From an uncultured bacterium (GTDB lineage: Bacteria > Patescibacteriota > Minisyncoccia > UBA6257 > 2-01-FULL-56-20): a stretch of DNA of 64,000 nucleotides. The notes beneath the pieces were generated by a model, which was given only the letters and a program-made list of their open reading frames with translations, had not been told where the DNA came from and searched no databases. A program made the translations under genes and the position numbers. Shown one piece after another: positions 2,786 through 57,489 of this stretch; within the stretch, counting starts at the first letter, position 1; each line of letters begins with the position of its first letter. The DNA is taken from NCBI GenBank assembly GCA_963844965.1, contig CAWJQC010000009.1, forward strand, positions 32,001 to 96,000, read 5' to 3'.

Positions 2786-2961
2786 ACCCAGTAGTGAAAC
2801 TGTGATTATTTATAAATCAAGCAATTCACGACGTAATTACTAATTGCCCATGCAATAAACCGTAGATGCCGCAAAGATGTTTTCCGCCTACGGCGTCGCA
2901 GTTCTACTACTGGGCATATGGAAATTAGTGTAACAGCATTCTAACAAAAAGTAAACACTTG

Positions 2962-3032
2962 TACCCCCACTAGGAATCGGACCTAGGTCAACTGCTTAAA
3001 AGGCAGCTGCTCTACCACTGAGCTATGGGGGC
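2962..3032 (-). tRNA. tRNA-Lys (anticodon UUU)
   Basis: Minus-strand sequence GCCCCCATAGCTCAGTGGTAGAGCAGCTGCCTTTTAAGCAGTTGACCTAGGTCCGATTCCTAGTGGGGGTA folds as a cloverleaf. It has a 7-bp acceptor stem, D-arm GCTC/GAGC, an anticodon loop CTTTTAA (anticodon TTT), and T-arm CTAGG/TCCGATT/CCTAG. Confidence 0.8.
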
Positions 3033-6940: not shown

Positions 6941-9079
6941 TTATGCGGGCGGCTGTTGAGGTTTTTCTTCGCCTCTGCCTTCGTTCCCTTTATTATAGAA
7001 CGACTGGCCGATTTTTTGAACTTCCGCCGAAAGGGCGGCACTCGCGGATTTTATCGCTTCCAGGTCGCCGCTATCCTTAACCTTCTTGAGCGCTTCAACT
7101 TTTTCGTTCACCGCGTTCTTGATATCAGCGCCGATCTTATCTCCGGCGTCCTTCAAAGATTTTTCGGCGAGGTAAACCAGCGCTTCCGCCTGGTTGCGCG
7201 TATCGGCAAGTTCCTTTTTCCGCGCGTCGTCTGCGGCGTGTTCGGCGGCTTCCTTGCGCAACTTTTCAATTTCATCTTTGGACAAGTGGGTCGTCGCCTC
7301 AATTTTCACCGATTGCGATTTTCCCGACGCCTTGTCCTTGGCCGAGACGGAGAGTATCCCGTTGGCGTCAATGTCAAAAGTCACTTCAACCTGCGGAACG
7401 CCGCGAGGCGCGGGCGGTATGCCGTCCAGAATGAACCGCGCCAGGGTTTTGTTGTCCGCCGCCATTGGCCGTTCTCCTTGAAGAACGTGAACTTCCACCG
7501 ACGTTTGCATGTCCGCGGCCGTGGAGAAAACCTGTGTCTTCGCCGTCGGCACGGTGGTGTTTTTCTGGATCATCGGCGTCGCCACGCCGCCCAACGTTTC
7601 AATGCTTAAAGTGAGCGGCGTTACGTCCAAAAGCAAGATGTCCTTCACGTCGCCCTGGAGAATTCCCGCCTGCACGGCGGCTCCCACGGCTACGACCTCA
7701 TCGGGATTGATCCCCTTGTGCGGCTCCTTTCCGAAAAGTTTTTTCACCGCTTCCACCATCGCCGGCATTCTCGTCTGCCCGCCGACCAGAACCACTTCGT
7801 TGATGTCCGACAGTTTGAACCCGGCGCCTTTCGGCGGCGGGGCGGTCACCGTCTCGCGCGTAAGTTCTATGGAACGAGCTATGTAATCCTCAACGAGATT
7901 CTCCAATTTGGCGCGGCTGAGTTTTATCAGAAAATGCTTTGGGCCGGAAGCGTCGGAAGTAATATACGGAAGATTAATTTCGGTTTCCGTGGAAGTAGAA
8001 AGCTCGTGCTTCGCGCGTTCAGCAGCTTCTTTGAGACGCTGGAGCGCGAGCGGGTCCTTTGATATATCAATGCCTTCCCGCTTCTTGTATTCCGCGACCA
8101 AATATTCGTTGATACGCTTGTCAAAATCGTCGCCGCCCAGGTGCGTGTCGCCGCCGGTCGCCTTCACCTCAACGGTGTCGTCGCCGACCTCAAGGACGGA
8201 GATGTCAAAAGTTCCGCCGCCGAAATCGTAGACAATGATTTTTTCGCTTTTTTGGCGGTTCATCCCGTAAGCCAGGGCAGCCGCAGTCGGCTCGTTAATG
8301 ATTCGCCTAACCTTGAATCCCGCGATTTCCCCGGAATTTTTTGTCGCCTGCCGCTGCGAATCGTCAAAGTAAGCGGGCACGGTGATAACCGCCTCTTCCA
8401 CTTTTTCTCCCAGTTTCGCCTCTGCGTCGGCTTTAAGTTTTCCTAACATCATCGCGGACATTTCTTCCGGCGAATACCATTTATCGCCCATTTTTATTTC
8501 AACACCGCCGGATGCGCTTTGCTGGATGTCATAAGGCAGCCATGCCTTGTCGCGCTGGACTTCGGGGTCGGTCCATTTGCGGCCGATAAGGCGCTTTACG
8601 GAAAAAATCGTGTTCTTGGGATTCGTAATCGCTTGCCGCTTAGCGAGCAATCCGACGAGCCGCTCGCCGTTCTTTGAAATCGCGACTATGGAAGGCGTCG
8701 TGCGGTTGCCCTCGGGATTCTCAAGTATGCGCGGCTCGCCGCCTTCCGTTACGGCAACCGCGGAATTAGTTGTTCCCAAGTCAATTCCAATTATTTTTTT
8801 TCCCGTAGATTCACTGGCCGTAAATTCTGCCTCAAACGCACCTTCCCCGCTCGGCAGTAAAAACGGTTTTTCTTTCACCAAAAGAAAATCCCAATCTCCG
8901 AAATCGCCACCTTTAAAAAGATTCTCTAACCCGGATTTAGAAAATATCCCGGAGGGAGCTTTCTTAATTAAAACTGTTAAAATCCTTTTGCCGCCACCAC
9001 CGGTGGCAATAGCATCTTTCAGAACTTCTACTTCTAGACCTTTATTCTTACAAAATTTTTCAATTTTATCGTAGGACAT
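6941..9079 (-). CDS. dnaK: Chaperone DnaK (Hsp70) with an N-terminal extension of about 95 aa
   Basis: Canonical Hsp70 motifs ([29 protein letters not shown], substrate-binding domain and lid) are preceded in frame by [19 protein letters not shown]...FLLVKEKP... There is no alternative start next to KIIGIDLGT. Confidence 0.9.
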
Positions 9080-9114
9080 TTTATTATTTATTTTAATTAT
9101 TTTTCTAATTCGAC

Positions 9115-10041
9115 TTATTGCAGTTCCTCGACTTTATAGCTCCACGTTACGTCGTTAAACACCCCACTACTGACGGTTAAAAGGTACGTACCCGGACCAA
9201 ACCCATTATAGGTGCCACTTACTGTTTGGCCATCGGCAACTGGAATATTGTGAACGAACGTACCAAAAGGAATGGGATTTGAAGCATCCAGCAAACTCTT
9301 GATTCTCACAAAATCCAGGTCTTGCTTATTTTCTTCGGCGGTTGTTGGCCATGTATTTGAAGTTACATGATTTGTCATGGTCCATTGTACCCTCCATCGC
9401 TGAGAGGTTATTTGGAACGGCGGCGGATATTTTCTGTCTGTATAAGCTCGTGGGTCAGTTGACCTCGCTATACTGTTACCACGAGAAATCTCGACCCATA
9501 TCCCTGCTTGCGGGGTTGTAGACTGGGATATTACTTTATAAGTGGAGTCATCGGTAATTAGTATTGGTGTCGTTACAGATAAATTCGCTATTGTTTGGGA
9601 TGTATAGGAACTCGGATCACGCAAAGCATTGCCGTTATCGCTGCCAAGGGACCCCAAATACGTACCATTGAAAGAAATTTTATTACCGGGCATCAAATTC
9701 AAATTGTTGACTGTTTTAGGCAGGATGAAAGCAACTGCAGTATTACCTTGACTATCTTTAAGAACGAGACAGCAGTTCATCTCCATGCTTTGTATTGTGC
9801 CCTCGAATTGAGATGAATTCTCGGATGACAAATCTTGGCCAGAAAATTGTTCGATGGGAGATTGTTGCGTTGAGGCCAGAGGTGTTTTTGTCGTGGACGA
9901 TGCGGTTTGCAACTGATTTGTAGGCGTCGGAGATAAGGGCGGAGGTATTGCCACCGGAGTCTGGTTGTACAGTAGCCCGCCAGTTATAGCCACAACGAAA
10001 ATCGCACCGATTACTATAGACCATTTATATTTTGTCCACAT
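9115..10041 (-). CDS. Hypothetical membrane-anchored extracytoplasmic protein lying between dnaK and grpE
   Basis: 308-aa ORF with an N-terminal TM helix, a Pro/Thr/Ser-rich linker and a beta-rich C-terminus. Confidence 0.5.
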
Positions 10042-10064
10042 AGTATTTTTAAATGATAATCTAT

Positions 10065-10817
10065 TTACTTTCGCTTAAATTGAATTGACGGGCCAACTTC
10101 GTTGTGCTCCGAAAATCCGACCACGCGCCAGTCTTTAAATTGTGCCGCATCGAAAACATTTTTTATCTTCTCAAAAGAATCTGAAACAGAAAGCTCTAAC
10201 GGGACAGATAGAATTGACTTGTCATTAGTCCAAAGTGGATAAGGTGTCGTACGTTTAATGACTAAATTATGGCTTTTGCAAAATTCTTCAATCTCTTGAA
10301 CGTTGCCCTTGCTAACTTTAACCCTCGCCGGCCTTAATATTTTATCATAAATTCTGTAGCCGGGCTCTATTTCTTCCAAAACGGTCCCTTCTGGCTTATC
10401 GGATTCGGCGGCGGCAACCGCTTCGGCGGACGACGGGTCAAATTTGTCGCCGACCTTCACCTCAATCCGTTCCACGCCGCGCTTTCGCAAAATATCCTCT
10501 ATCTGCGTTCTAATCATATAAATTCCCTTATCCACAGAGCCGGATTTTTCCATAGCTCTCAATCCCAGGTCAAAATTATCAATAATCGCGATCAAATCTC
10601 TTATGAGTTCTACACTGCCGTAGCGCGCGATATCTTCCAAACGCTGCATTTCTTCCTTTTTATAGTTAATGAAGTCCGCTTTCGCTCTCTGCCAGCCGGC
10701 GAGATACTCAGCTTTTTCTTTCTCGCATTTCTCTAGTTTTTCTTTCAATTCTTTGACTTCGCCGCTGTCCGCGCCGCTTGCTTCCGAATTTTTCTTTTTA
10801 TCTTCTTCGTCTCCCAT
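10065..10817 (-). CDS. grpE: Nucleotide exchange factor GrpE with a C-terminal extension of about 80 aa
   Basis: GrpE coiled-coil and beta-sheet core (…AEYLAGWQRAKADFINYKKEE…, …IRTQIEDILRKRGVERIE…EAVAAAES…) followed by an extra domain EIEEFCKSHNLVIKR…FKDWRVVGFSEHN. Confidence 0.8.
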   Translation of the reverse strand: MGDEEDKKKNSEASGADSGEVKELKEKLEKCEKEKAEYLAGWQRAKADFINYKKEEMQRLEDIARYGSVELIRDLIAIIDNFDLGLRAMEKSGSVDKGIYMIRTQIEDILRKRGVERIEVKVGDKFDPSSAEAVAAAESDKPEGTVLEEIEPGYRIYDKILRPARVKVSKGNVQEIEEFCKSHNLVIKRTTPYPLWTNDKSILSVPLELSVSDSFEKIKNVFDAAQFKDWRVVGFSEHNEVGPSIQFKRK

Positions 10818-11446
10818 TATTTTTTATTGCTTAATTCTTTGAAAATACCCAGGACCTTTTTATAGTTCATTCTCTTCGGGCCGATAGCCAAAAGAAGAAC
10901 GCCGCCGCCGTTTGCCCCGTAGCTTCCCGAGATGACCGCCAAATCCCCACTTTTCGTCACCGGACTTTTCCTACCGATAAAGACCTGCGGCTCGGCGGAT
11001 TTTTTTAATTTTTTCTCCGCTCTGCCCAGTCGCTCGTCAAGCTCCGCGAAGTCGCGGACAATTTCTTTGATCGCGTCCGGCGTTTCCCACTCCGGCCGTT
11101 CCACGAGATTTTCAATCCCCTCTTTGTATATCTCGCCGCCTCCGCTCGCGACGCCCAAAAGTTCAAGTTCGTCCGAAAGGAATTCCGCGAGTCCCGCCAA
11201 GGCGTGCCTCGCGAACAAATTCCTCACGGACCACAAACCAAAAAACGATTCCTCCTCGGCAAGAATCCGATTGGCGAAAAATTCGTAACCGGCGTCGCTC
11301 GGGACCCTGCCGGCGGAGTGGTGTGGCTGTTCCAAAAACCCTTCGTTGGATAATTTCTCCAGTTCCAGCCGTATCATCGCCGGTTTAATGCCAAAATCGC
11401 AATGTTCGTAAAGCCAGCCGGAACTTATCGGCTCGTCTGAGTCGAC
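10817..11446 (-). CDS. hrcA: Heat-inducible repressor HrcA, 5'-truncated at the junction with the high-GC segment
   Basis: The ORF 10817..11377 ends with the HrcA C-terminus (LLLAIGPKRMNYKKVLGIF). In-frame translation upstream of the annotated Met continues HrcA (…DEPISSGWLYEHCDFGIKPAMIRLELEKLSNEGFLEQPHHSAGRVPSDAGYEFF). Homology is lost at about 11446, where GC content jumps. The first 20-25 aa of HrcA are missing. Confidence 0.7.
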   Translation of the reverse strand, partial: VDSDEPISSGWLYEHCDFGIKPAMIRLELEKLSNEGFLEQPHHSAGRVPSDAGYEFFANRILAEEESFFGLWSVRNLFARHALAGLAEFLSDELELLGVASGGGEIYKEGIENLVERPEWETPDAIKEIVRDFAELDERLGRAEKKLKKSAEPQVFIGRKSPVTKSGDLAVISGSYGANGGGVLLLAIGPKRMNYKKVLGIFKELSNKK

Positions 11447-13266
11447 AGCCGGCCGGAAATCGGCACCTGGAGCACAGCGGCAGCGCTACACATAGACACC
11501 AACGGCAACTCGATCTTCGATCCCGACAACCTCGATTTCACCAACCGCGACCTGGTCTACAGCTTCGGCTTCTCCACCGACAACATGTTCTCCGGCAACT
11601 TCAGCCCGATCGGGGCCGCAGCGGCCGACGGCTTCGACAAGCTGGCCGCCTACGGCAAGATCGGCACGCAATATCGTTGGATCGTCAACACCAATAACGA
11701 CGGCGTGCCGGACGATGGTGGTCAACGACCCGGCGAACATCAACGGCTTGCCGGTCGCCGGCAACTTCGACGGCAACGCCGCCAACGGCGACGAGGTCGG
11801 GCTGTTCGACGGCGCAACTGGTGGCTCGACACGAATCACGACTACAAAGTCAACACGAAAATCGTCAGCTCGTTGCGGGGTTATCCGATCGTGGGCGACT
11901 TCGACGGCGACCACAACTTCGACCTGGCGACCTACCAGGTCAACCCGGTCAACAAGTTCTTCTTCGAGTTGGAGCCGCTAGTGCCACGCCGGTGTTCAAG
12001 AGCATCGATGCCGCGAGCCAGTTCGGCTACATTGGCGTTCGCTCACGGCCGGTCGCGGCCGACATCGAGCGCGACGGCACGACCGACGTGGGGCTGTGGG
12101 TGCCGGACCGCACCGGCGCCACGGGCGACCACATCGGCGAATGGTCGTTCCTGCTCTCCAATTTCGTAGACGCAGCAAGGGCACGGTCAGTACGCTGGAC
12201 CATCAGTTTTCGCCGACGCCGTTGAGCACGACCTGCTTCGCCCGCTTCGGCAACGAGTTCCCTGCCGATGGTGGGTAATTTTGATCCGCCGCTGGCCAGC
12301 GTCAAGGCGGGGCCGGCGATTTCCGGCGTGGTGCTGACCGTTTCCGGGACGAAGCCGACGGTCACTTGGGCGGTGGACGCCGGCCGAGCATTGCCGCGGC
12401 GACGTTGTTGGTGGACGGCAAGGCGGTGGCGGTTTCCAAGCTATCGGGCAGCGCGACGCACGGCAGCTATTCCGCCGGCGCTGGCGGGGTTGAACCTGGC
12501 GGCGGGCAGTCACAGCTTTGTGATCAAGGCCACGGACTCGGCGGGCACGCCCGCCACGACGCAATGCACGGGCACGTTCGACGTCGTCGGGCCGACGATC
12601 AAGGGCGTGGCACTGTCGGTTGCGAAGGGCCTACTCACGTGGAACGCGGTTTCGCCGAACGGCATGGCCGGCGTTGCCCTGATGATCGACAACAAGTCGG
12701 TGTCGAAGATCGCGCTACGCCGTCGGAATTACGCTGGGACGATGGGTTTGCCGGGGATCGGCACCACAAGTACGTCATCACGGCCACCGACAAGACCGGC
12801 AAGAGCGTGACGCTAAGCGACAGTTTTGTCGTTACCGCCCCGACGATCAGCAACGTAGCGATAGCGGCTGCGAAGGGCTTGATCACGTGGACGGCTGCGG
12901 CTTCGCGGCGTGGCGAGTGTTGGTCTGACGATCGACGGCAAGCGAGTGTCGAACACAAGCGGTCCCAACGCGGCGGGGAACTGCTACGGGTTGGCGGGCA
13001 AGCTGCCGGCGGGCACGCACAAGTACGTCATCACGGTCACTGACAAGGGTGGCAAAGCGGTGACGCTTGGCGGTTCGTTCGTGGTGAGCAAGCCGTCCAA
13101 GGCTGTGCAGAGCACCGCGATATCGAGTGCAAGCCGGCTCTGCGTTGTCCGATTCGGCCAAGGTTGCCTGGCTTTACGATCTTGGCGGTTTGACCGGCAC
13201 ATCGTCGAGTACGACCAAAAAGAGCACGTCCGCCCAAGCCGCGGACACCGTTATTGCCCGCTACTG
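11447..13266 (+). pseudogene. High-GC FG-GAP / Ig-like repeat protein, 5'-truncated and fragmented across more than 8 frame changes
   Basis: Frames alternate (ORFs 11585, 11715, 11821, 12096, 12268, 12366 and 12910), each carrying real-looking repeat sequence (VAGNFDGN…, GDFDGDHNFDLATYQ…, KYVITATDKTGKSVTLSDSFVVTAPTISNVAIAAAKGLITW…). The reading frame is open back to the junction with no start codon. Confidence 0.5.
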
Positions 13267-13689
13267 AGCAGGGTTACAAGGATCGAGAAGCGGTTGAGGC
13301 GACAAGCGACATTGCCTTGTCGTAAGGATAGCATGCGTCGGGACGAGGGTTTCGAAATGGCACTATTTCGGGAGCGAACGCCTGGTCGCAGGATGGGTGC
13401 ATTTACTTACAGGATGTTTCGCCGTGAGAGTTCACCCGACAGGCGGTTGAGGATTTTTTTGAGGGTTGTGCCAACCATCTCCTGATTACCAATTGAGGTT
13501 TGGTGTTAAGAATAAGTGAAACTTGGCTCTCCGACTCGTCTGTATCGGGCGGGGATCGGCGAATCGGACGGGCCCGTCTGCCGGAGCCGTTGATCTTATA
13601 CCAGTCATTTAGAGTCGATCACCGCCGGCTCAGCCTTGCTCTGAGCCAGCCCAATAAGGGAGATTTCTGCCATGTGGTAACACCAAGCC

Positions 13690-16600
13690 ATGGGATTCCG
13701 TAACAACTCGCGACGTTCCTCCTCCGCCACGCGGCAGAAGTCGAAGCCATTCTCGATGCGAAACCGACACGCAGCATTTGAACCCCTCGAAGAGCGTCAG
13801 TTGCTGAGCGTCACGCTGACGGGCGTGCCGGATTGGGTCGCTAAGGGTACCGCCCCGATCGTTGCCGGCAACAGCGACAACGTTACGGGGATGACGCCCG
13901 CCACCAGCCTGGAAGTCGGCGCTGTGAACGCTCTGGCGGTCGACCCGACAAACACCAAGCATCTCTTTGCGGCCACCGTGAATGGCGGCATCTGGCAAAC
14001 CAACGACTTCACCGTGGCGAACCCGACCTGGACCACCAGCACGGATCTCATGCCGTCGCTGGCGATCAGCGCTATCGCCTTCAGCCCCACTAACAGCAGC
14101 GTCATCTATGCCGGAACGGGCAGCTACAGTTCCACGGGTGGCGGTGTGGGCGGGGCCGGCATGGGTGGCGGCTCTGTCGGGCTGTACAAGTCAATCAATG
14201 GCGGGGCCACCTGGCAGGTCATCGACCCGAATGGCATCTTCACCGGACTGCGCAGTCCGGCGAGTTGTCCCGAGACGCTTAACGGAGGCCAAACCGTCTT
14301 TGCGGCCGCGACCGATACGGCGGCCGGGAGCGGCGGCGTCTACCGCTCGGACGATGGCGGCGGCACCTGGACGCGGCTCTCGGGCGATAACGGCCTGCCC
14401 AACGCGGGCGTCACCGACCTGGTGGCTAATCCGGCCAACGCCAACCAGTTCTTCGCTGCGGTCGCCGGCGGATCCGGCGGCGCCGGCGGCACGGGCGGCA
14501 TCTTCAGCCTCGATCTATCGGTGAATACAACCTGGACGAACATTACGGGTAATATCAACACCATCAATCCCGGCGTGCTCAACAATGCGATCCGGGTGGA
14601 GTTGTCTGTCAGCATCGCCGGAGTGAATCCGATCTGGGCGAGCGTGATCAACAGCAGCGGCTTCTACGCCGACGTCTTCCGGGCGCCGAACGCCGCATCG
14701 CCCACATGGGCGGCCGTCGGACCCGGCGGTTTGCTTCCGGACGTTCTCCAAGGCAATCAGGGTGGCGTTCACGGCTCCATCGAGGCCGACCCCAACTCCG
14801 ACACGGTCGTGTACATCGGCGGCGATGCAAAGCAGACTGCCAGTCCCTTTAGCGGGTATCTTGCCCGAGGTGATTCCGGCACCAACACCTGAACCGGCAT
14901 GACCCCCGTCGATACCGTGACGGCGAACCCTGGCCTGACCGTCATCCCGACGGCTAATGGCGTCACCGCCGCCCCGCATCCGGACACCCGCAACCTGGTT
15001 TTTGCCTCTGGCGGAGTCCTGCTGGTATCGTGCGACGGCGGCGTCTACCAAGCCACAAACCCGACGGGGGCCGGGCCGGCGATGGCCTGGACTTCGATTA
15101 ACGGCACCCTCGAAGACAGCGAGTTTTACACGGTTTCCTATGACAACCGAAACACGGCAGCCACGGCCGACGATCTAATCGAGGGGGCCGCCCAGGACGA
15201 CAGCTCGAGTGAGCGGAACACGGCTGCCGTTTGGAACACCCAGACAGGCGGCGATGGCACCGTCGTGCTGGCTGACCCCATCAGCGACACACGCTATTTC
15301 TCGATGCAGAACTACTTCATGGGTAGTGTCATCGGCGGGGGCGGCGTCAATCGACCCGCCGGCACTGTCGCGGGCACGGGGGGCAAGGTTCTGAACGCGG
15401 CTAACGCCGGCACCAAGGCCGAGACGTTCCCCTTTACCCCCGCCTTCCAAATCAACCAGGGGGACATCGGCAGCGGGGCGGGCACGGCACGGGTTATCCT
15501 GGGGGGCAATCAGACGCTCTATGTCTCCAGCGACCAGGCAGCCAACTACACCTCGATCGGCGGCACAACTGCAAATAACCCCGACCCCGTGACCAACCTA
15601 ACCGCCCGGGTGATCACGATCGCGTTTGGTGCGGCGACCAATACGAATGCCTGCTACGTCGCTATGTCCGACGGCAACGTCACCAAGACGACGGACATCA
15701 CCACTGCCGGCGGTGGTTTCAGCCTCACGACCTTCCTTGCGACGGCCGGCGGTGAGGATGGCGCAGGGTATGGCGATCGATCCCAACGACGCGAATACGG
15801 TCTACGTAATCACTCTGACGCGCAGCCTGCGTGACCACGGACGGCGGCACTACGTGGGCCAACATCACGGACAACCTGGCATCCCTGTTCACTCCGGGCT
15901 TTGCCAGCAACGTGAGTCCGAGTCAGGAGCGGGGGATCACCCTGTTCAACAACGGCACGGCAACGAAGGCCGACGACGTGCTGTTGATCGGCGGTCCAGG
16001 CGGTGTCTTTCGGCGTCTGGCCGCATCGCCCCCGGGTGGCATTTGGAGCCAATATGGCGTTGATTTGCCCAACGTGCTGGTCGACAGTCTGCAATATGAC
16101 CAACTGAGCGATACGCTTCTGGCTGGCACTTTTGGCCGCGGCGACTGGACGGTTAGCAGCGTTGCCACCACAATTAACGCCGCTGGCGTGATGGTGATCT
16201 GCGGCGACCAGGATTTTGCCAACGAAGACGACACCTTTAAGCTGGTCCGCGACCCCGGCGATCCGTTGCTGTTGGATGTGTTTCAGAACAACACCACCAC
16301 TACCCCCGACTTCCAAGTGCCGTTGGCGGTGGTCCAGCAGATCGACGTCTTCGCCGCCGGCGGCAACGACAACTTGATTGTTGACAGCAGCAACGGCCTG
16401 ATCAGCGTCGCCGGCGGCATTCGTTACGACGCCGATCACGGCTGCCCGGGCGACACAGCCGCCGGAATCGGCGGTTTCGACCGCCTCACCCTCACCCAGA
16501 ATCTGACGGGTGGCCCCGCCATCGCTTCCGATCAATTGGCGCCGGGTGCCACCCCGGGCGACGGCATCAGCACCGTCAACGACACGGCCGGCAACGTCCA

Positions 16601-19223
16601 GACGATTGATTTCCAGTACCTCGAACCGGTTGTCGATAACGTCCCCTCGCCGACGTTCGATATCGCCGCCGTCCCCGGATTGGCGAGTCTGCTGGACGCC
16701 GACAACGCCATCGACTATACGGCCAGCCAGATTCTGCTTACCGGCGGCCGCGTGACGATCGACAATTTCGAGCCGATCGAGTTCGAGAACAAGGTCACCT
16801 TGGTCATCGACGCCGGGGCCGGCAGTGATGCGATCAATCTGAACAATCCCACCACGCCCACCGGCCTGGCGGCCATCACCGTCAACGGTGGCGACCCGTC
16901 GCTCGCCGATACGATCACCGTCAACGGCATCAAGGGGGCTACGGACCATTTCGTGGTGCTGCCCACGGCCGCAGGCAACGGAAACATTTTCGACACCGAC
17001 ACAGCGAGCGCCAAATATCGCCCCCGAGGTTCACTATTCCGGCATGCAAGGGGTCAACGTCGTGGGCCAAAACGCGGATGCGGACGCCTTGGCGGACGGA
17101 GGAACTGTGGGCGACGACTCGTTCACCTATAATCCTGGCACGACCGCGTCTTCCGGAGAGATTCACGGTTTCAACAGCGGTTTCTCCTTTGGGGCCTTGA
17201 CCTTTAACGGAATCACCGGCTGGGTCACGATGGGATCGCCTTTGGTGAACCTTACCGCAGGTTCGGCGACCGGCCTCCTCGTCCTCGGCGGCCACGACAC
17301 GGTGGTCATCGACGGGACGGCGGCTGACGATTCCTTCAATTGGGACAATTCTCTTGTATTCCTGCAGGTGCGAGTGGACACTGGCGGCGACCTTCACACC
17401 CCCATCGTCCTGGCCGGCGACCAAATCGTTGGATACGTTTCACACGTCATTGTGCAGGGGCTCGACGGCAACGACACGTTCAATGTGATTCCTGGGGGGG
17501 CCCCTGGCAGTGACTTGTTCGACATCCGCATCGAAGGAGGGGATTCCGATAGCTTTACCGACACACTAAACCTCAGCGGCGCCGTCGGCCCGGTGGGGGT
17601 GAATCTGGCCGACAGCACCGTGCCCTCCGACACCTCGATAACCGGCTACGGCAGCACCGTCACGCTCACCGGCGTCGAGTTGGTCCACATGGATGTCAAC
17701 GGCACAAACCCTGACGGTCACGGGCACGGCGGGCGCGGACCAGTTCAACTTCACGCCCACGGCGCTGGGCGTCGGCAGTTTCAAGGTCACGACCACCGGC
17801 GCCATCGTCGAGACCAGCCCGCAATTCACCTATACCGGCGTGGCGGCCACGGGCGTCACGCTCAACGGCGGTACGGGCGGATTCGACGTGCTGGGACTGA
17901 CGGCCACGGCCGGCAACGACACGATCAACGCCGTGCAGACCGACGCCACGCATTTGAGCTTCACCCTCAACGCGTTCACGCAGCCTTTCATTTTCGCCAC
18001 GCCGGCTTCGGTGCCAGGGGTCAACATCTACGCCGGCGCCGGCGATGACTTGATTCGCGTGAGCGTGACCAATGCGCTGGAAAGCACCACGCCGAGCGCC
18101 AGCCTGCGGTTCACGGTCGACGGCGGCGAGCCCAATGCCAGCGATCGGCTGCTCGTGAACGACGACGGCATTGGCGACCTGACTATCCTTCGCCAGGGCC
18201 CCGATGATCGAAGCGGCTCGGTGACGGTGGGCGTTCTGAATCCCGTTGTCTATGAAAACGTCGAGCGTCTCGACGTCACGCCGCTTAATCCCATCACCGG
18301 TGGGACCGGCACTGACGGCAACGGCCGCATCTTCGTCATGCATCAGAATCCGTTCGAGACCAACGACAGCCTCGCGAACGCACGGCGCAGATCGAGCGGC
18401 TGGCCGATTCGCCGACCAGCCCCACGATCGACCCGGCCGGCCTCAATACCCCTCCGTTTACGGTCAGCGGCGACGAAGATTGGTACGTCTTCCGTCCCAA
18501 GTTCACCACGGACTACCAAGTCCGCATCCTGTTCCATCGCATCGTGGCTTTGGCGAACGGCCGGCCTGGCCTGCCGGGCACCGGCGACTTGTCGCTCGAC
18601 ATCTACGACGCCAACGGGGCGTTGATCGTCTCCGGCGTGGCCGATGGAAACGGCGACAACCGCACGGCCATTTTCGGGGCCACGCCCACCGTGGCACAGT
18701 TCGCCACGATCTATATCCGCGTCAAAGGCGGAGAAGCGCCAGCTGGCGCCTCGGTCAATCTCTACGACTTCGACAACATCACCGCATTGACGTTCCCGGT
18801 GCCACCGGGGGTCGGCAACGTGGACGTGTTCGGTCCCCAGGTCACCGGCGTGGCCATCACCACCGCGCCGGCCTACAACTTGTTCGATCCCAAGGAATTC
18901 ACACATGGCGGCCTGGGCCCGACGCCATTGGTAAACGGCCTGACCATCAGTTTCAAGGATTTACCGGCACGCACCCCGGGCTTCGTCTATCCGGCCCTCG
19001 ATCCGGCCACGGCCAGCACCCGGGCACTTATGTGGTCAAGGGAGATGCCAACGGCATCGTTCAGATCTCGCAGATCATCGTGACCAACAACCCGCCGGCG
19101 GTGGGACAGGTGCCCACGGCGACGGTCCAACTGGTTTTCGCCCAGCCGTTGCCCGACGATCGCTTCACGTTGACGATCAACGACAATCTGCTCGATCCGG
19201 CCACCGCGTCTATAAATCCCTGA
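13690..19223 (+). pseudogene. Giant BNR/Asp-box repeat extracellular protein with a Planctomycetes-type N-terminus; contains 1 in-frame TGA and at least 4 frame changes
   Basis: The N-terminus MGFRNNS…MRNRHAAFEPLEERQLLSV matches the planctomycete 'LExLExRxLLS' signal-anchor motif. It has repeated SxDxGxTW boxes (SINGGATWQV, SDDGGGTWTR, TTDGGTTWANI). ORFs 13690, 14899, 15831, 16888, 17693 and 18246 are colinear pieces of one gene. Confidence 0.55.
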
Positions 19224-19275
19224 ACCGCCGCCTCCAAAATTTTCTGCGTTCTTTCCGTAAACATGGAGTAATCGC

Positions 19276-19346
19276 GAATAATGCGAATCTATTTTAAATA
19301 ATGCGAATATTATTATTAGTGTTATTTGCTATCATTCGCATTATTA
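19276..19346. repeat. AT-rich region with three copies of AATAATGCGAAT (two direct, one inverted); putative operator
   Basis: GCGAATAATGCGAAT at 19276, AAATAATGCGAATA at 19299 and the inverted ATTCGCATTATT at 19335. The region lies between the end of the high-GC segment and the gene at 19490. Confidence 0.4.
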
Positions 19347-19489
19347 GCGAACACTCCGAATTATAGTCCTATTGGCAATCTTGTCAAGCGATTGCTAATA
19401 CTTGACAGAAATATAATTCCATGCTAACATTACATCAGTACTTGCCCGAACGTGTTTGATGTTGGGCAAGAGAAAAGGAGAAGGGCGAC

Positions 19490-28947: not shown

Positions 28948-29952
28948 CTAACCGTGGCGCACGACAACCACGTCGCCGTCCTGAACCACATATTCTTTTC
29001 CTTCCAGCCGAATCTGCCCTTTTTGTTTCGCTTGCACCCAGCCGCCGAGTTCCAGAAGTTTTTGCCAGTTGATGACTTCGGCTCGGATGAAGTTCTTCTC
29101 AAAATCCGTATGAATGACGCCCGCCGCCTGCGGCGCCTTTGTACCGCGCTTTATCGTCCAGGCGCGCGTTTCGTCCTCGCCGGTCGTTAGAAAGCTTATC
29201 AAATCCAGAATTTTGTAGGCTTTCTCTATCAGAATCGGGAGCTTGTCGGACGCACCTAGGTCAGCCACGATATAATCCGCCCCCAACTCCCCTATTTTCT
29301 TTATCAATTCCGGCTTGACTTCATTTTCCTTACCGTTCAGGAGGTAAATCTGCCGCTTGGTGGTCAGTAAGTTCAACTCTTTCACGATTTCCTCGTCTTT
29401 ATGTTTCAAGATCAAATTGCCGCCGTTCAATTCCTTCCGCACCACCTCCAAGACAGCCAGGTTTTTCATCGCCTGCTTGTCGCCTGTGCGCGCTTCGCCC
29501 CCCAATTTTCCGAGGCGCTTATCAATCGTTTCCAAATCTTTCAAGGCAAGTTCGGAATTTGTAGTGATGAGATCGCGCAGGGCGTCAACTGAATTTTCCA
29601 CGTGTATAATTTCGGGGTTTTCAAATGTCCGAAGAACTAACACTATCGCCTGCGTGTCGCGGATGTGAGCCAAAAATTGGTTGCCTAACCCCTCGCCCTT
29701 GTAGGCGCCGCGCACGAGCCCGGCGATGTCGTAAAACTCAACGACCGCTGGCACAACCTTTTTGGAATTGCTCAATTTGGCGAGTTTTTCCAGGCGCTCG
29801 TCCGGAACCGACACAATGCCGACATTCGGGTCAATCGTCGCGAAAGGATAGTTGGCGATATTCACTTCTTGCTTCGTTAAAATTTTAAACAGGGTGGATT
29901 TGCCAACGTTGGGTAGTCCCACGATGCCGATTGAAAGTTTTTGACCCGACAT
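28948..29952 (-). CDS. ychF: Ribosome-binding ATPase YchF
   Basis: GIVGLPNVGKSTLF G1 motif, Obg-like GTPase core, and C-terminal TGS domain (…RLEGKEYVVQDGDVVVVRH). Confidence 0.9.
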   Translation of the reverse strand: MSGQKLSIGIVGLPNVGKSTLFKILTKQEVNIANYPFATIDPNVGIVSVPDERLEKLAKLSNSKKVVPAVVEFYDIAGLVRGAYKGEGLGNQFLAHIRDTQAIVLVLRTFENPEIIHVENSVDALRDLITTNSELALKDLETIDKRLGKLGGEARTGDKQAMKNLAVLEVVRKELNGGNLILKHKDEEIVKELNLLTTKRQIYLLNGKENEVKPELIKKIGELGADYIVADLGASDKLPILIEKAYKILDLISFLTTGEDETRAWTIKRGTKAPQAAGVIHTDFEKNFIRAEVINWQKLLELGGWVQAKQKGQIRLEGKEYVVQDGDVVVVRHG

Positions 29953-31523
29953 AGTTTAGATTTCTAATTGGTATACCGCCGTATACATGCAATTCTTCTT
30001 GAGTGCCTACGACTTTATCTATAACATCCCTAACTATCGTCTTTTTTCCCTCAAAATTCAAGCGTGCAACGACTTCCGCCGCGCACTCGGCAAATTCCCT
30101 TACCTCGTTCCATTGGGGCAAAATAAAGTCATTCTGGCGCTCTCCCGCCTCTGGCGGCTTTGGCATCCTGCTTTCCAGTAAAGCAACCCGTGCCCGTAAA
30201 TCGCTCTTGTATTCCTTCAGCTTCTCCATGCCTATCAGCCCCGCCCCGTATGCCCTGTCATAGCGAGCTTCCTCGTCTTTCAACTTCTCAACGTCCCTTT
30301 TGAAATTGAAAATGGATATATCGGGGCGCGCCGCGCTTTCTTTCTTTTTCCCGATAAACTTCTGCGCGTTTTTCATCATCAGTTCCGGCGAAGTCATAAT
30401 CCCTGCCGTCTTTTTCCATACGAGCGCATCGGCTATCCTCGCGTTTATTCCCCGCTCGGCGCACTTCGGAGGCAAGGGGAAGCTGTGAACCCTATCCGTG
30501 CAGCGATAATAAAGATGTTTCCCGCGCTGCGGGCCTTCTCCGGCCCGCCTTCTCCCGCATCCGCAGTAAATCTTCCCGCTCAAAAGATACTCGTTTTTCC
30601 GGTTTCGCTGGCACTCCGCGAAATTTACCGCAAGTTGCCGCGCCGCCCGCTCAAATAATTCTCGGCTGATGAGGGCGGGTGTCGTTATTTTTATCCACTC
30701 CTCCTCCGGCCTCACCTTGCGGCTCGTCTTTTTGATTCTCCGGTAGCCCTCTTTCTTAAACGGATTCTCCGGCACGACGGCATAAGAGCTTCCATAATGC
30801 CCTTCGCCTATGTAGGTTTTATTCCTCAAAAGCGTTGAAAGGGTGCTGGTATTCCAAACGCCCCGCGCGCTCCAGCGCGGCGCTATGCCCGCTTTCATAA
30901 GCTCCTTCACAACCTGCCGCAAAGTAAGCCCGTCATCGGCAATCCACGAAAATATCTTTTTAACAACGGTTGCCTCTTGTTCGTTGATTTCATAGCAGCC
31001 ATGTTTCCCATCCGTTTCTTTTTTCGGCTTAAAAATATAGCCGTAGGGAGCTTCGCTGGTAATAATATGCCCCTCTTTTGCCTTCCGCAGTTTCCCAAGC
31101 CGGAAGCGCTCGGCGATTTTCGCCCTCTCATACTCGGCAAAAAGCCCCCTAACACCGTGCAGGATTTTCTCCTCGCTATTTTTCGGACGGAATGGTAACG
31201 AACAATACTTCAACTCCCGCCTCCCGTAGTTCGTCCATCACCAATTCCTGATAAGAGTAGCGGCGGGCCAACCTATCTGGGTCATAAATCAAAACCGCTT
31301 CCCATATCTTCTTTTTCACGTCCTGCCGGAGCTGGTCGAGTTGAGGCCGCACGAGCGTGTCCCCGCTCCAGCCGTTATCAATGTATTCCTGCACGATGGT
31401 GTAGCCATTTTTCACGGCAAACTCCCGAACGGCGACAAGCTGGGTTTCAATAGTGCCTTCATCCGGCGAGGTGCTGACACGGGCGTATATGGCAATCAAT
31501 TTTATGATGGCGGCTTCGTTCAT
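29885..31523 (-). CDS. Large serine recombinase (resolvase catalytic domain + recombinase domain + zinc ribbon/coiled coil), split by a homopolymer frameshift near 31179-31183
   Basis: ORF 31176..31523 carries the catalytic domain with the YARVST serine motif. ORF 29885..31213 carries the recombinase domain and the C4 zinc ribbon (CGCG…CTDR…C). The two join if the A5/T5 run is one base shorter (…VTIPSE-NSEEKILHGV…). Its C-terminus overlaps the ychF start by 68 nt. Confidence 0.8.
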
Positions 31524-48520: not shown

Positions 48521-49689
48521 ATGGCAGAGACCAAGAAGTCAAGAACGGTCAAGAAGAGGGTTGCGACAAGATCAAAGCGAAAGTCCCGAGTTTCCTCTGC
48601 GGCGAAGAGAACAAAAAAAACGGCTGGACGCCGACGTGTTTTGCCGCGCAAACATATTGAACATATCCTGGAGAGATTCCCCGGCAATCCGATCATTCAG
48701 CCAAACGCCGAGAACCAGTGGGAAAGCAAAGCGACCTTCAACCCGGCGGCTCTCCACGACAAAGGAAAAATCCACATCGTCTACAGAGCGATAGGCGACA
48801 ATGACGTGTCCGTCCTGGGCTACGCCACAAGCACCGACGGCACGAACATAGAAGAAAGATTGCCTCATCCAATTTACGCCAAAAAAGTGAGCGCCGCGGA
48901 CAATTCGGAGCGGTGTCTTCGGGATTTACAATCGCCGATCTTTTACATTTCGGGGGGCGGCTGGAACGGCGGCTGCGAAGATCCGCGCCTCACGCGCATA
49001 GGTGACACCGTCTATATGCTCTACACGGCTTTTGACGGCTGGGGGTCGCTCCGAATAGCGCTGACCTCAATAAAGACGAATGACTTCCGCAACAGAATTT
49101 GGAAATGGAAAGAACCGGTCCTGATTTCCCCGCCCGGAGAAATACACAAGAACTGGGTGATTTTCCCGGAGAAAATAAACGGCAAGTTCGCCATCCTGCA
49201 CAGCATATCGCCGAAAATCATGATTGACTATTTTGACGGTTTGGACGACTTAGATAACGGGATTTTCATTCGCAGCCGTTACGGCGGGGAAATGCGAAAA
49301 AATAAATGGGACAGCCACCCGCGAGGAGCCGGTCCCCGCCGATAAAAACGGGATATGGCTGGCTTCTCCTCTATCACGCGATAGACCATAAAGACCCCGG
49401 CAAATACAAGCTTGGGGCTATGATTTTAGACCTCAAAGATCCGACAAAAATCCTTTATCGCTCGAAAAAACCGGTTTTGGAACCGGATGAATATTATGAA
49501 AACGAAGGGTTCAAAGCCGGCGTGATATATTCCTGCGGCGCAGTCGTCGTCAACGGCCGGCTTATCGTTTACTACGGCGGAGCCGACTCGGTAAGCTGCG
49601 TGGCCACCGCCAAACTTGACGAATTCCTGAAAGGGCTCATTTCCGACAAAGAACCGAAACTTACGCGCCTGCAGCGATTAAAAAGCTAA
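48521..49689 (+). CDS. GH130-family glycoside phosphorylase/hydrolase, split by a C-run frameshift at about 49334-49337
   Basis: ORFs 48521..49345 and 49306..49689 join as …NKWDSHPRGAGP-PPIKTGYGWLLLYH… if the C4 run is C5. GH130 motifs GGCEDPRLTRIGDTVYMLYTAFDG and GYGWLLLYHAI are present. Confidence 0.7.
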
Positions 49690-49724: not shown

Positions 49725-51649
49725 ATGTTCGTCTTCAAACGTTCGGAGGAAAATCCGATATTAATACCGCAAACCGAAAATTTATGGGAAGCTGAGGCAA
49801 CCTTCAACGGTTGCCCTGTTCCCGACGGGAAAAAAACTCATCTCCTCTACCGGGCGGTTTCCTCGGGGCAAATAGTGGACGGAAAAGAAATCAAAATATC
49901 TTCCATCGGCTGCGCCCTGTCCGATGACGGCGTGCATTTCAAAAACCGCAGGCAGTTTATCAAGCCGGAATACGAATGGGAACGCTTCGGCTGCGAAATC
50001 TGCGCGTGACCAAGCTCGGCGACAAATATTATATTTTCTACACAGCACTTTCCCAGTATCCCTTCAGGGCGGATGGGATAAAGATAGGCGTAGCGATAAC
50101 GAAGGACTTCAAGAAAATAGACGCGAAGTACCCGGTGACAACTTTCAATTCAAAAGCGATGGCGCTTTTCCCCGAAAAAATCGGCGGGAAGATCACGGCG
50201 GTGCTCACAGTGAACACCGATAAGCCACCGGCCAGAATTTGCCTTGCGCAATTCGACAGAGAAGAACAAATCTGGTCCAGCGAATACTGGGAAGAATGGT
50301 ATGGTAAGCTTGATTACCATGTATTGCCGCTCGCGCGGAAGTCAACCGACCACACCGAAGTCGGCGCGCCGCCCATTAAAACCAAATATGGATGGCTTCT
50401 GATTCTACCATATATTTCCAACTATTTCTTGCCGCCGCCCATATTCGGCATAGAGGCGGCGCTTCTGGACCTGAAAAATCCGAGAAACATAATTGCCGCA
50501 ACGACCAGCGCGCTGCTCTACTCGCGCGAAGAATACGAGAAATTCGGGAACGTGCCCAATGTCATCTTTCCGTCGGGAGCTCTTGTCAGTCACGGCAATC
50601 TCAACTTATATTATGGCGCGGCGGACACAACTTGCGCTTTAGCCACCGGAAAATTAAACGAGCTGCTGGAAGACCTGCGCTCGAAGCGGCCGCGCGCGGC
50701 GCGGCTCAAACGCTTTGCCGGCAACCCGATAATCAAACCGAAACCGGAAAGCGCGTGGCAGTCAAAAGCAACTTTCAATCCCGGAGCCATATACGCCGGT
50801 GACAAAATACACCTTCTCTACAGAGCCATGGACAAAGACAACACTTCAACCTTCGGATACGCGGCAAGTTCGGATGGTTACACGATGGATTACCGGCTGC
50901 CGCAACCGGTTTACACGCCGCAAGCCGATTTTGAAAAAAAACTGGTTCCCGGAGCGAATTCCGGCTGCGAAGACCCGCGACTCACGCTCATCGATAAAAC
51001 GATCTATGTGTGTTACACCGCTTTTGACGGCAAAAATCCATGGCGTATAGCTCTGACCTCCATATCGTTGGACGATTTCCTGAGCAGGCGCTGGAACTGG
51101 AAACGCCCGGTTCTCATTTCTCCGCCGGGAATTGACGACAAAGACGCCGTTCTATTTCCCAAAAAAATTGGCGGCAAATATGTGTTTCTGCACCGCCTTG
51201 GCGCGGACATCTGGATAGATTTTGTTGACTCACTGGAATTTGACGGCAAGAGATGGCTGCAGGGGAAAATAATATTGACGCCGCAATCCGGACCACAGGC
51301 CTCAAAAAAAATAGGCACCGGCGGGCCGCCCATAGAAACAAAGTATGGCTGGCTTCTCATATACCACGGCATATCCAGAGATGAGGACAATCATTACCAC
51401 CTCCGCGCCGCTCTTTTAGATAAAAAGGATCCTGCCAAGATTATCGCGAGGACCCACGAACCCATTCTGGAAACCACGGAATATTATGAAAAAGGCGGTA
51501 ATGTGAACAACGTTGTCTTCACCTGCGGTTCCGTCGTCGTCAACAACACTCTTTTTGTCTATTACGGCGGCGCGGATACGGTCGTCGGCGTCGCCACGGC
51601 GAATTTTGATGATTTTATGAAAAAATTATCCCGCGAGAAATATGCTTAG
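49725..51649 (+). CDS. Tandem double-GH130-domain protein, split by a frameshift at about 49995-50000
   Basis: ORFs 49725..50009 and 49976..51649. The GH130 signature occurs twice (…KLGDKYYIFYTA…KYGWLLILPY… and …CEDPRLTLIDKTIYVCYTAFDG…KYGWLLIYHGI…). Confidence 0.7.
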
Positions 51650-53498: not shown

Positions 53499-54869
53499 TT
53501 ATTTTTTACTCTCTATCATTTCTTCGACCTTTAGCTTGGCTTCTTCTAATAATTCTTTTGCTTTTTTGCGGGCGGCGTGAGATTCGCGAATAAGTTCGGC
53601 GATTTTTTGCTGGGTTGGTTTGGGCAAAATTGGAATTACAATATTCTCAACATCTTGATCGGTAATAGTTGGATAAGATGTGCCCGTTGTTGGTTTTTCC
53701 ATTTGCAACTTACCGATGACGGACCGCAAAACAACCTGTAGATATTCGCGCGTCGGAGACGGGACTTCAAAAACCGAGAAGGCGCCACTCGCAACAAAGT
53801 TTTTGCTCCAGCTATCGGGCACGATTGCGATGGCACCACGAGTGGGTCGAACTTTTGAAATCAACAGCTCGCCCCCGACAATTTTAATCTTGGCATTTGC
53901 GGGCAACTCTTTACCCAAGATCAAGTTACTAGAAATTGCTCCGTTTCCAACGTTAACGTCGCTAATCTCGATATATTCGTATTGGACATCGGGCGCAAGC
54001 CCTGCCCGCCTTGCTGTTCGCTTAGCAATTTTGCCAAGAGGTTTTACATTTTCCCCCAAGAGTTTTATTAACTTTTGATACTTCGGCTGGAAAAATTCGG
54101 CGTCAATGCGATTCGCTTTTTTTGCTTCGGACAAATTAACCACGCTCCATAATTCATTTTCCGATTCAAAATTCTTAAGCCCCAATTCTTCCAAAAGTAA
54201 ATTTTCTGCTTGAGAGTATAGGGCATTTGCTTGATCCAAAGTGTTCTTGGCCCCAATCACCACATTGTTGATATCTTTGACGAATGCTTCTGATGGAATC
54301 GGATAAATCAAATCATAAACATCCTGGACATTTAATTTGGGTTGAGCGTTCCCGCTAATTCTCCTCATAATCTGAGCAAAACCAAACCTAGAATTTAGAA
54401 AGGTTAACAGAAATATTTTTTGCTCCGGCATCACTTTCGAGTTTTTGAACTTGATACCGATGTTATTCTCACTTATATTACAAACTTCAAATTCTTCTGG
54501 CACGGCAGATACAATACCAATCGTGTTGCCAACTTTAGACATTATCAAGTCGAAGGGAGAAAGCTGAGATTGCTTTAGTCGGTCATTGTCCTTTTTTGAA
54601 ATATATATGAGCTCGGTTTTATCAAGAAAAAAGTTTTGCAAATCAGAAATTCTCAAAAAAGGAATACCACTACTTACATAGGCACTACTTTTTAACGAGG
54701 AGCCGAAAGGGCCACTAACAACAACAGCGCTTTCTTTTAAGGTTTGTGTTCCGCCAGAAAATGATTTTATTTCGTTTATTAATTTCAAATACTCCGGCTG
54801 ATAATATTCCGCATCCAGCCGGTACGCACCCTCCAGTTGAGATTTTTGGATGATAGAATAACTAACCAT
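53499..54869 (-). CDS. hsdS: Type I restriction-modification specificity subunit HsdS (two target-recognition domains)
   Basis: 456-aa ORF with two TRD-like halves separated by conserved coiled-coil spacers (…LEELGLKNFE…, …KAKELLEEAKLKVEEMI…). Confidence 0.8.
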   Translation of the reverse strand: MVSYSIIQKSQLEGAYRLDAEYYQPEYLKLINEIKSFSGGTQTLKESAVVVSGPFGSSLKSSAYVSSGIPFLRISDLQNFFLDKTELIYISKKDNDRLKQSQLSPFDLIMSKVGNTIGIVSAVPEEFEVCNISENNIGIKFKNSKVMPEQKIFLLTFLNSRFGFAQIMRRISGNAQPKLNVQDVYDLIYPIPSEAFVKDINNVVIGAKNTLDQANALYSQAENLLLEELGLKNFESENELWSVVNLSEAKKANRIDAEFFQPKYQKLIKLLGENVKPLGKIAKRTARRAGLAPDVQYEYIEISDVNVGNGAISSNLILGKELPANAKIKIVGGELLISKVRPTRGAIAIVPDSWSKNFVASGAFSVFEVPSPTREYLQVVLRSVIGKLQMEKPTTGTSYPTITDQDVENIVIPILPKPTQQKIAELIRESHAARKKAKELLEEAKLKVEEMIESKK

Positions 54870-55523: not shown

Positions 55524-55534
55524 TATTTTTTATC

Positions 55535-57488: not shown

Positions 57489-57489
57489 A

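Follow-up and report, generated by a model that had tools for sequence, protein, structure and literature searches.

The hrcA gene of a bacterium of the Patescibacteria (Parcubacteria/Paceibacteria-like), encoded in the 64,000-nucleotide stretch analyzed here (hereafter, the window: positions 32,001 to 96,000 of contig CAWJQC010000009.1 in assembly GCA_963844965.1), is split by an exact insertion of 7,767 bp of foreign, GC-rich DNA, such that the gene lost neither codons nor its promoter and no host base is missing. The insert is a single gene of about 2,480 codons for a secreted protein, together with a 421-bp spacer, in a circularly permuted arrangement that lacks about 0.1 kb of a complete unit. 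The explanation we favor, to which we give even chances, is a real, rare and non-functional insertion that arose by illegitimate recombination and is carried by a few error-prone reads. An initial annotation of the same DNA preferred a chimeric join that abuts a 5'-truncated hrcA; the truncation is a misreading, given that the two halves of hrcA rejoin in frame and align without a gap with the gene of an intact relative.

The shift in composition is sharp. The GC content is 0.628 over the exact insert vs 0.474 in the remaining 56 kb of the window, so that the initial annotation was right about the step and too high about its size (67%). In 1-kb windows, GC ranges from 0.58 to 0.66 at 12–19 kb, compared with 0.37–0.56 in the flanks, and at 200-nt resolution, it climbs from about 11.45–11.6 kb and drops at 19.1–19.3 kb. 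The distance to the mean tetranucleotide profile of the host is 0.58–0.61 within the insert vs 0.13–0.27 elsewhere. The edges had been placed nearly correctly, at 11447 and directly after a stop codon at 19223, but the insert runs exactly from 11444 to 19210, subject to an ambiguity of 3 bp, and the TGA at 19223 already belongs to the host.

This ambiguity results from the trinucleotide GTC, which is present at both edges. A single copy suffices for the host (GAC, Asp19, on the minus strand), and the homologs of the insert gene contain Val (GTC) ahead of DSRPEIGTW. These 3 bp could represent a target duplication, microhomology or chance alike. GTC is the only junction sequence common to the host and the insert, and no longer direct repeat was found between the flanks and the insert ends. 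We rejected as a target duplication the dipeptide AV that appears on both sides at the protein level because the codons differ (GCG GTG vs GCT GTC). Close to the right end, within the insert, there is also a 17-nt direct repeat (18997–19013 and 19191–19207, 16 of 17 positions identical), the two copies of which are 194 nt apart and each encode LDPAT. One 126,036-bp contig in NCBI/ENA contains both the open reading frame (ORF) of the insert, P0001, and the truncated HrcA, P0131, and therefore the insert structure is already in the public record.

Viewed alone, the 3' part of hrcA resembles a 5'-truncated gene: it translates upstream as far as ...DSDEPISSGWLYEHCDFGIKPAMIR, beyond which the translation becomes nonsense, and the public annotation is a truncated product of 186 amino acids (aa; P0131, 100% identical). 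The remainder of the gene lies across the insert. From 19264, the minus strand reads MFTERTQKILEAAVQGFID..., an N-terminus typical of HrcA (that of L001 is MILEDRKAKILNAAIESFITRGEPVSS and that of L007 MLETRKRDILFALINEFIKKGEPISS), and the 18-codon 5' piece aligns with the HrcA N-termini of the relatives L001, L007 and L011, with equal spacing to the EP(I/V)SS motif. Joining 19211 to 11443 yields ...GFIDSDEPISS... and an HrcA of 226 aa, close to the 227–233 aa of its relatives, with the same three residues between FI and EP. The rejoined protein shows 57–77% identity to HrcA proteins of the candidate phyla radiation (CPR), the closest intact one being P0132 (227 aa, 77% identity), which is encoded on L011 (GCA_040960625.1, JBFOMW010005559.1). 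At the DNA level, the rejoined gene aligns with the intact L011 hrcA without gaps over the junction, and the gene order of L011, CorA-x-x-hrcA-grpE-x-dnaK-x-dnaJ, is kept identically in the window across the insert.

The regulatory region survives as well. The initial annotation had hrcA losing its first 20–25 codons and, with them, the promoter and operator, whereas 18 codons, the promoter and an operator resembling CIRCE (controlling inverted repeat of chaperone expression) are all intact at 19211–19398 on the minus strand. The predicted sigma-70 promoter (19387–19360, minus strand) overlaps the CIRCE-like operator, TTGGCAATC-N9-GATTGCTAA at 19372–19398, a perfect 9-bp inverted repeat with three mismatches to the consensus TTAGCACTC-N9-GAGTGCTAA, for which 0.02 occurrences are expected by chance. 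Upstream of the intact hrcA of L011, the design matches, with TTGACA located in the CIRCE spacer. The hrcA halves (681 nt), the promoter with its 12/12 match and the CIRCE repeat are all undamaged. Because the rejoined gene aligns gap-free with that of L011 and the promoter is intact, the insertion is exact, and hrcA is split, not truncated. The contig returns to the host at 19211, that is, at the very next base of hrcA, with synteny kept on both sides and a junction that shares GTC alone, with no repeat or k-mer, so that an end-to-end chimeric join is excluded. Apart from the operator, the 5' untranslated region of hrcA (19265–19357) contains a 24-nt inverted repeat, the arms of which are 88% complementary and separated by 45 nt, as well as a AATAATGCGAAT motif that is repeated.

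The initial annotation saw two genes truncated at the left junction, hrcA and the high-GC reading frame; the latter encodes the C-terminal portion of the gene that is cut off at the right edge of the insert. When the intact 2,156-aa homolog from L010 was compared with the insert using tblastn, residues 216–573 matched 15831–16988, residues 1332–1382 matched 18820–18972, and residues 1473–1536 matched 19014–19202, at the right end, with the match extending to residue 1546. The protein then resumes at the left end, where residues 1572–1625 matched 11441–11605 and residues 1713–1903 matched 11615–12162. In the sequence permuted for alignment (13483..19210 followed by 11444..13482), both L010 and an independent homolog, L009, remain colinear where the two ends meet. 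At its right end, the insert reads ..PLPDDRFTLTINDNLLDPATAS, and at its left end, VDSRPEIGTWS...; the residues separating these two motifs number about 33 in L009 (..INDANVIDLPGNQLAGWSNGAEPSGQPPLTSGGQSGNFVARFTVDSRPEIGTW..) and about 26 in L010, such that some 26–33 conserved residues, between ..TLTINDNLLDP and VDSRPEIGTW, are absent at the joint. Given that the two ends of the insert are neighbors, in colinear order, in homologs without an interruption, the insert is one permuted gene rather than two. In both homologous loci (L009, ENA ERZ25039466 contig_35398, 7184–16467; L010, ERZ25039519 contig_12698, 10001–18152), the gene is present in a single copy, with an outer-membrane-protein gene upstream on the opposite strand and no tandem paralog. 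Public protein clusters built from these two loci contain numerous fragments of the product of a single giant gene.

Homology places the probable start of the gene at 13690; its end is probably ..AADTVIARY-TGA at 13266–13268. The N-terminal secreted-protein motif reported initially, MRNRHAAFEPLEERQLLSV, is indeed present, at 13756, and the N-terminal part stops at the insert edge with ..TLTINDNLLDPATAS. The C-terminal part includes three Ig-like repeats of about 83 aa (12330–13080) and gives a tblastn match to residues 1572–1958 of the L010 homolog. The labels FG-GAP, Ig and BNR attached to these regions at the outset reach sub-threshold Pfam scores at best, frame correction included: Big_13 scores 26.1 bits in the C-terminal part, below the cut-off of 27, and Sortilin-Vps10/BNR is below the cut-off in the N-terminal part. 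The spacer contains stops in all frames. We compared it with the sequences on either side of the homologs in search of the point where a circle would have closed, and the only match was 13659–13746, to the 5' end of the homologs; if the fragment was circularized, the closure point would lie within the 421 bp of the spacer. Taken together, the permutation and the unit length point to an intermediate that was circular or head-to-tail. The coordinates of all these features are collected in Table 1.

Table 1 The insert, the split hrcA gene and the displaced chaperone operon, with positions in the window
Feature	Position	Strand	Description
Foreign insert	11444..19210	+	7,767 bp, GC 0.628; coding solely on the + strand
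GTC, left copy of the junction 3-mer	11441..11443		Read from the sequence; target duplication or microhomology
GTC, right copy of the junction 3-mer	19208..19210		Read from the sequence
C-terminal ~610 codons of the giant gene (probable end)	11444..13268	+	VDSRPEIGTW..., FG-GAP-like GDFDGD repeats; tblastn to L010 and L009
Spacer between the end of the giant gene and its own start	13269..13689		421 bp, GC 0.52–0.56
N-terminal ~1,840 codons of the giant gene (probable start)	13690..19210	+	MGFRNNS...MRNRHAAFEPLEERQLLSV signal motif, BNR/Sortilin-like propeller, repeat regions
hrcA 3' part	10817..11443	-	Codon 19 to stop; Pfam HrcA C-terminal domain, E 2e-12
hrcA 5' part	19211..19264	-	18 codons, MFTERTQKILEAAVQGFI; translation
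Predicted hrcA promoter and overlapping CIRCE-like operator	19360..19398	-	TTGACA-16-TATAAT, sigma-70, 12/12
Remainder of the grpE-dnaK operon	6941..10817	-	Promoter now 7.8 kb away; syntenic with L001 and L011
grpE	10065-10817	-	Pfam GrpE, full-length match
Gene for a putative 308-aa secreted protein	9115-10041	-	N-terminal hydrophobic segment; no Pfam match
dnaK	6941-9079	-	Pfam HSP70, full-length match

The insert is foreign to its CPR host and, judging from its homologs and their genomic neighborhood, has a Planctomycetota-type affinity. The closest homologs (P0002–P0013) are giant proteins with 53–60% identity to the insert gene, and they are encoded on contigs of 63–65% GC that also carry outer-membrane and efflux genes and are not CPR-like. 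Beside the L010 homolog lies a gene for a sigma-54 response regulator, for which all organism-named matches among the best 120 come from Planctomycetota (Bythopirellula, 69%; Gemmatales, 67%; and, twice, 'Planctomycetes bacterium'). The initial description of the segment as Planctomycetes-like thus agrees with these contigs and with this neighbor gene; in the insert gene itself, the sole family match is that of the N-terminus to PF07595 (Planctomycete extracellular), at 18.6 bits vs a cut-off of 25.5 (E 0.0015), and the homolog P0013 scores exactly 25.5 bits against this family. Protein searches, including those at JGI, detected no genome of the same host species and no donor above 60% identity.

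More than 12 frame disruptions were reported initially for this segment, along with cleaner flanks, and both observations hold. The plus strand of the insert consists of stop-free pieces with repeated frame changes, which we traced using a dynamic program based on codon usage, where skips of 1 or 2 nt are allowed and stops are penalized; in the control, an intact homologous ORF of 6.4 kb, there were 0 false events. The resulting path over the insert contains about 15 frameshifts and one in-frame TGA, which is located at 14890–14892, in place of a conserved Trp. At least nine of the frameshifts fall within 11444–13100, in the C-terminal part (5.4 per kb), compared with about six, plus the TGA, in the N-terminal part, 13690–19210 (1.3 per kb), a four-fold difference in frameshift density between the two parts of the gene (binomial p = 0.004). 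Thirteen of the 15 frameshifts, the positions of which are resolved only to about 12 nt either way, have no homopolymer of four or more nucleotides within 12 nt, the background being 22% of positions with one. Along the same kind of path, the L009 homolog, which comes from an ENA contig_* assembly, presents a similar picture, with 12 frameshifts and 0 stops. The L010 homolog has one frameshift, and both of these closest homologs are thus broken up in public assemblies of a long-read style. The ratio of nonsense to frameshift events in the insert, 1:15, leans toward sequencing error but is not decisive.

The host sequence shows a different kind of error. A check of 33 host ORFs against Pfam, which samples the flanks rather than covering them whole, revealed two frameshifts in the 56 kb, each a single-base homopolymer error; the host ORFs with Pfam matches, including DnaK, GrpE, DnaJ, CorA, CysS and DnaB, are covered nearly to the ends of the profiles. 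One of the two frameshifts splits a large serine recombinase gene (29885–31523, minus strand) into a 115-aa ORF with the catalytic N-terminus (31176–31523) and a 442-aa ORF (29885–31213) at an A5 run (31179–31183), and A4 would restore the frame. The other splits a GH130 (mannoside phosphorylase-like) gene (48521–49689, plus strand) at a C4 run (49334–49337); here, C5 would restore ..GAGPPPIKTGYGW.., as in the intact paralog at 49976–51649. The two cases suggest homopolymer consensus errors of a long-read assembly. We further considered the ORF pair at 21330/21776 as a split EamA gene and discarded this candidate, a half-size transporter, as in L011, being more likely.

The frame disruptions of the insert are most likely consensus errors. 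Because the host errors are homopolymeric, whereas the indels of the insert are random and approach the density of raw reads, one or few reads would have covered the insert, which accordingly seems to be backed by very few reads of what appears to be an error-prone long-read assembly. Contigs that contain a variant supported by a single read have been described in long-read metagenome assemblies (preprint, bioRxiv 10.1101/2025.04.22.649783).

The most economical scenario for these observations is the following. The donor gene region would have formed a unit-length circular (or head-to-tail) copy; the circle would have been opened within the giant gene, with the loss of about 100 nt, and would then have been joined, independently of homology (by end joining or via microhomology), into a break in hrcA, leaving GTC at both junctions and keeping all the host bases. 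This rare structural variant could have been picked as the assembly backbone along with its raw-read-like errors. In the cells that carry the insert, HrcA would be lost, and grpE-dnaK would be cut off from the CIRCE-controlled promoter. The insert is without function, the gene being both permuted and broken. A more specific version, under which a unit-length circle of a giant surface-protein gene came from a Planctomycetota cell, possibly the host or a neighbor of this episymbiont, and its end joining into hrcA de-repressed the chaperone regulon, seems to us a long shot.

Several considerations weigh against a rare insertion of a circular intermediate. The circle itself, the in vivo origin and the low read support are what we infer. 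The 0.1 kb or so that is missing at the joint is a misfit to a simple reciprocal (Campbell-type) crossover, and two tandem donor paralogs could give near-coincident ends, albeit with a chance of about 2–3% given such an arrangement. Natural decay is compatible with the nonsense-to-frameshift ratio: at 10 substitutions per frameshift, the probability of observing one or fewer nonsense events is 0.17–0.22. The limited resolution of the frameshift positions, mentioned above, belongs here as well. Finally, the databases contain no second assembly of the host species (the best HrcA being 77% identical) and no donor closer than 60% amino-acid identity, so that neither an independent occupied site nor the arrangement in the donor is visible.

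Under one alternative, which we consider unlikely, this is an older horizontal transfer that has become fixed and is truly decaying, such that all cells of the population have the insert, its depth equals that of the flanks, and both the TGA and the frameshifts are real mutations that turn the gene into a pseudogene. The exactness of the insertion agrees with this explanation, the loss of HrcA is tolerable in principle, the ratio of nonsense to frameshift events is within reach of natural decay, and the composition, which is still donor-like, is compatible with a divergence of only about 1–2% since the transfer. However, spontaneous single-base indels cluster in homopolymer runs, and nearly all the frameshifts in the insert (13 of 15) lie outside such runs; nor does decay readily account for a four-fold density difference within one gene or for the undamaged state of the hrcA halves, the promoter and the CIRCE repeat, and the two homopolymer errors of the host point to error-prone long reads. 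The initial annotation offered, as its second choice, a decayed island of horizontal gene transfer. The genuine insertion implied by that choice comes closer to what we find, but 'island' is doubtful for one permuted gene, and 'decayed' is doubtful because the pattern of frameshifts is more like low-coverage long-read error than mutational decay.

We also hold it improbable, although worth weighing, that the structure is an artefact of assembly or library preparation, where one or more planctomycete reads were spliced in, in silico or in vitro, through chimeric reads, template switching in the course of amplification or gap filling, so that no cellular molecule ever existed. The sharp shift in GC and taxonomy and the far higher error density within the insert are what such an artefact would produce, the structure is found on one public contig only, and multi-phylum chimeras have been documented for metaFlye and metaMDBG (bioRxiv 10.1101/2025.04.22.649783). 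This explanation is hard to reconcile with the continuation of the host at the very next nucleotide, with no loss or duplication beyond 3 bp, which demands that two independent chimeric junctions agree to the base. Moreover, 3 shared bp are too few for a graph error driven by repeats or k-mers, and random ligation or gap filling would not produce a permuted gene of unit length.

Still less probable, in our judgment, is a linear donor fragment that spans two tandem paralogous giant genes (the C-terminus of A, the spacer and the N-terminus of B), with no circle involved. Two genes are possible insofar as no stretch of the protein is covered by both the left and the right part, and the unequal frameshift densities would be natural if gene A were an older pseudogene. 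The ends, however, must coincide to within about 30 residues of a protein of about 2,500 residues, hence the low chance given above, and the L009 and L010 loci are single-copy, with a different upstream neighbor.

A mobile element (a transposon, an integron-like cassette or an integrative element) that brought in the giant gene as cargo and left a 3-bp target duplication is very improbable. IS3- and IS30-type elements form circular intermediates and produce 2–4-bp duplications, with which GTC on both edges would be consistent. Nevertheless, neither the insert pieces nor the frame-corrected protein have a Pfam match to a transposase, integrase or recombinase, no terminal inverted or direct repeats were found at the insert ends and no inverted repeat pairs the two, both ends lie inside the coding sequence that is interrupted there, and searches of plasmid and viral (phage, IMG/VR) contigs detected no relatives of the insert. 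A genomic island, integrative element or prophage was rejected on similar grounds, the insert being one permuted, broken gene with no integrase, no att-like repeats found and no tRNA target (the sole tRNA of the window is at 2961–3032, and the recombinase nearest to the insert is 10 kb off and frameshifted).

The insertion of foreign DNA independently of homology is a known kind of event, whereas the permuted-unit structure is unusual. During natural transformation of Acinetobacter baylyi, double illegitimate recombination mediated by microhomology reportedly integrates foreign DNA. To our knowledge, illegitimate integration of this kind has not been documented in CPR bacteria. The insert described here resembles such events in that heterologous DNA is joined at 3-bp overlaps, without mobility genes, with the donor gene cut arbitrarily and a host gene disrupted; it differs in its length of 7.8 kb and in its circular permutation, for which the entry of a single linear strand offers no explanation. 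A short-patch mechanism (SPDIR) related to illegitimate integration is described in a preprint (bioRxiv 10.1101/2023.11.22.568220). The topology, host-left, opened circle, host-right, with GTC at both junctions and no loss of host sequence, is that of Campbell-type integration, in which a circle enters through one crossover, but there is no homology, att site or replication or integration genes, and about 0.1 kb is missing at the point of opening. In eukaryotes, the capture of extrachromosomal or organellar DNA (NUMT/NUPT-type insertions) at double-strand breaks through end joining likewise involves non-functional filler DNA, microhomology of 0–4 bp and, often, a circular source; here, in contrast, the recipient is a bacterium and the donor comes from another phylum. 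With the chimeras and variants of long-read assemblies (bioRxiv 10.1101/2025.04.22.649783), the insert shares a shift in GC and taxonomy within one contig, and the minority-variant class (Fig. 4B of that preprint) fits the inferred low support and the raw-read-like errors. Unlike classical chimeras, which switch genomes without returning to the same base, the host is perfectly continuous across the insert.

The disrupted locus is otherwise a familiar HrcA-CIRCE regulon, with a canonical hrcA-grpE-dnaK operon, a short HrcA of the CPR type and a CIRCE-like inverted repeat over the promoter; what sets it apart is that the repressor gene is split after codon 18–19 and the body of the operon is 7.8 kb away from the promoter. 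Within this operon, the 308-aa ORF between grpE and dnaK has a hydrophobic N-terminal segment that resembles a signal or anchor; it has no counterpart in L001, where dnaK directly follows grpE, and in L011 the position is occupied by an unrelated 97-aa coiled-coil ORF. GrpE has a C-terminal extension of about 78 aa (10065–10300, minus strand) and DnaK has an N-terminal extension of about 93 aa (8800–9079, minus strand). These extensions are paralogs of each other that share the motif IE[EK]FCK...F.DW (31% identity over 59 aa, E 3e-7), and both are missing from L001 and L011. Elsewhere in the window, the stretch at 31.2–39 kb that adjoins the serine recombinase has a lower GC content and mostly unknown ORFs and is possibly an integrated element. 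A Type I restriction-modification cluster (53499–58131, minus strand) lies in a low-GC stretch (0.37–0.41) and comprises an S subunit (53499–54869), an N6 methylase (55535–56842) and an N-terminal fragment of HsdR (56775–57488), followed by a LexA-like repressor (57490–58131, minus strand).

For genome curation, this case illustrates that a GC jump beside a seemingly truncated gene is no proof of a chimeric join: inspecting the other edge, on the other strand, converts the 'chimera' to an exact insertion, and a contig trimmed at the junction would wrongly break a genuine CPR locus. It also shows how a structural variant present in a minority, with the error levels of raw reads, can be carried by a long-read assembler into a published metagenome-assembled genome. 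If the reads confirm the insertion, it would be a rare case, resolved to the nucleotide, of a Patescibacterium that captured DNA of another phylum independently of homology, and unusual both for an insert that resembles a unit-length circle and for the heat-shock repressor gene as the target. Should the capture of a circle prove to be the true explanation, the insert would be a natural tag tying an uncultured Patescibacterium to a Planctomycetota partner, and circular DNA, beyond linear single strands, would be a substrate for gene acquisition in this group.

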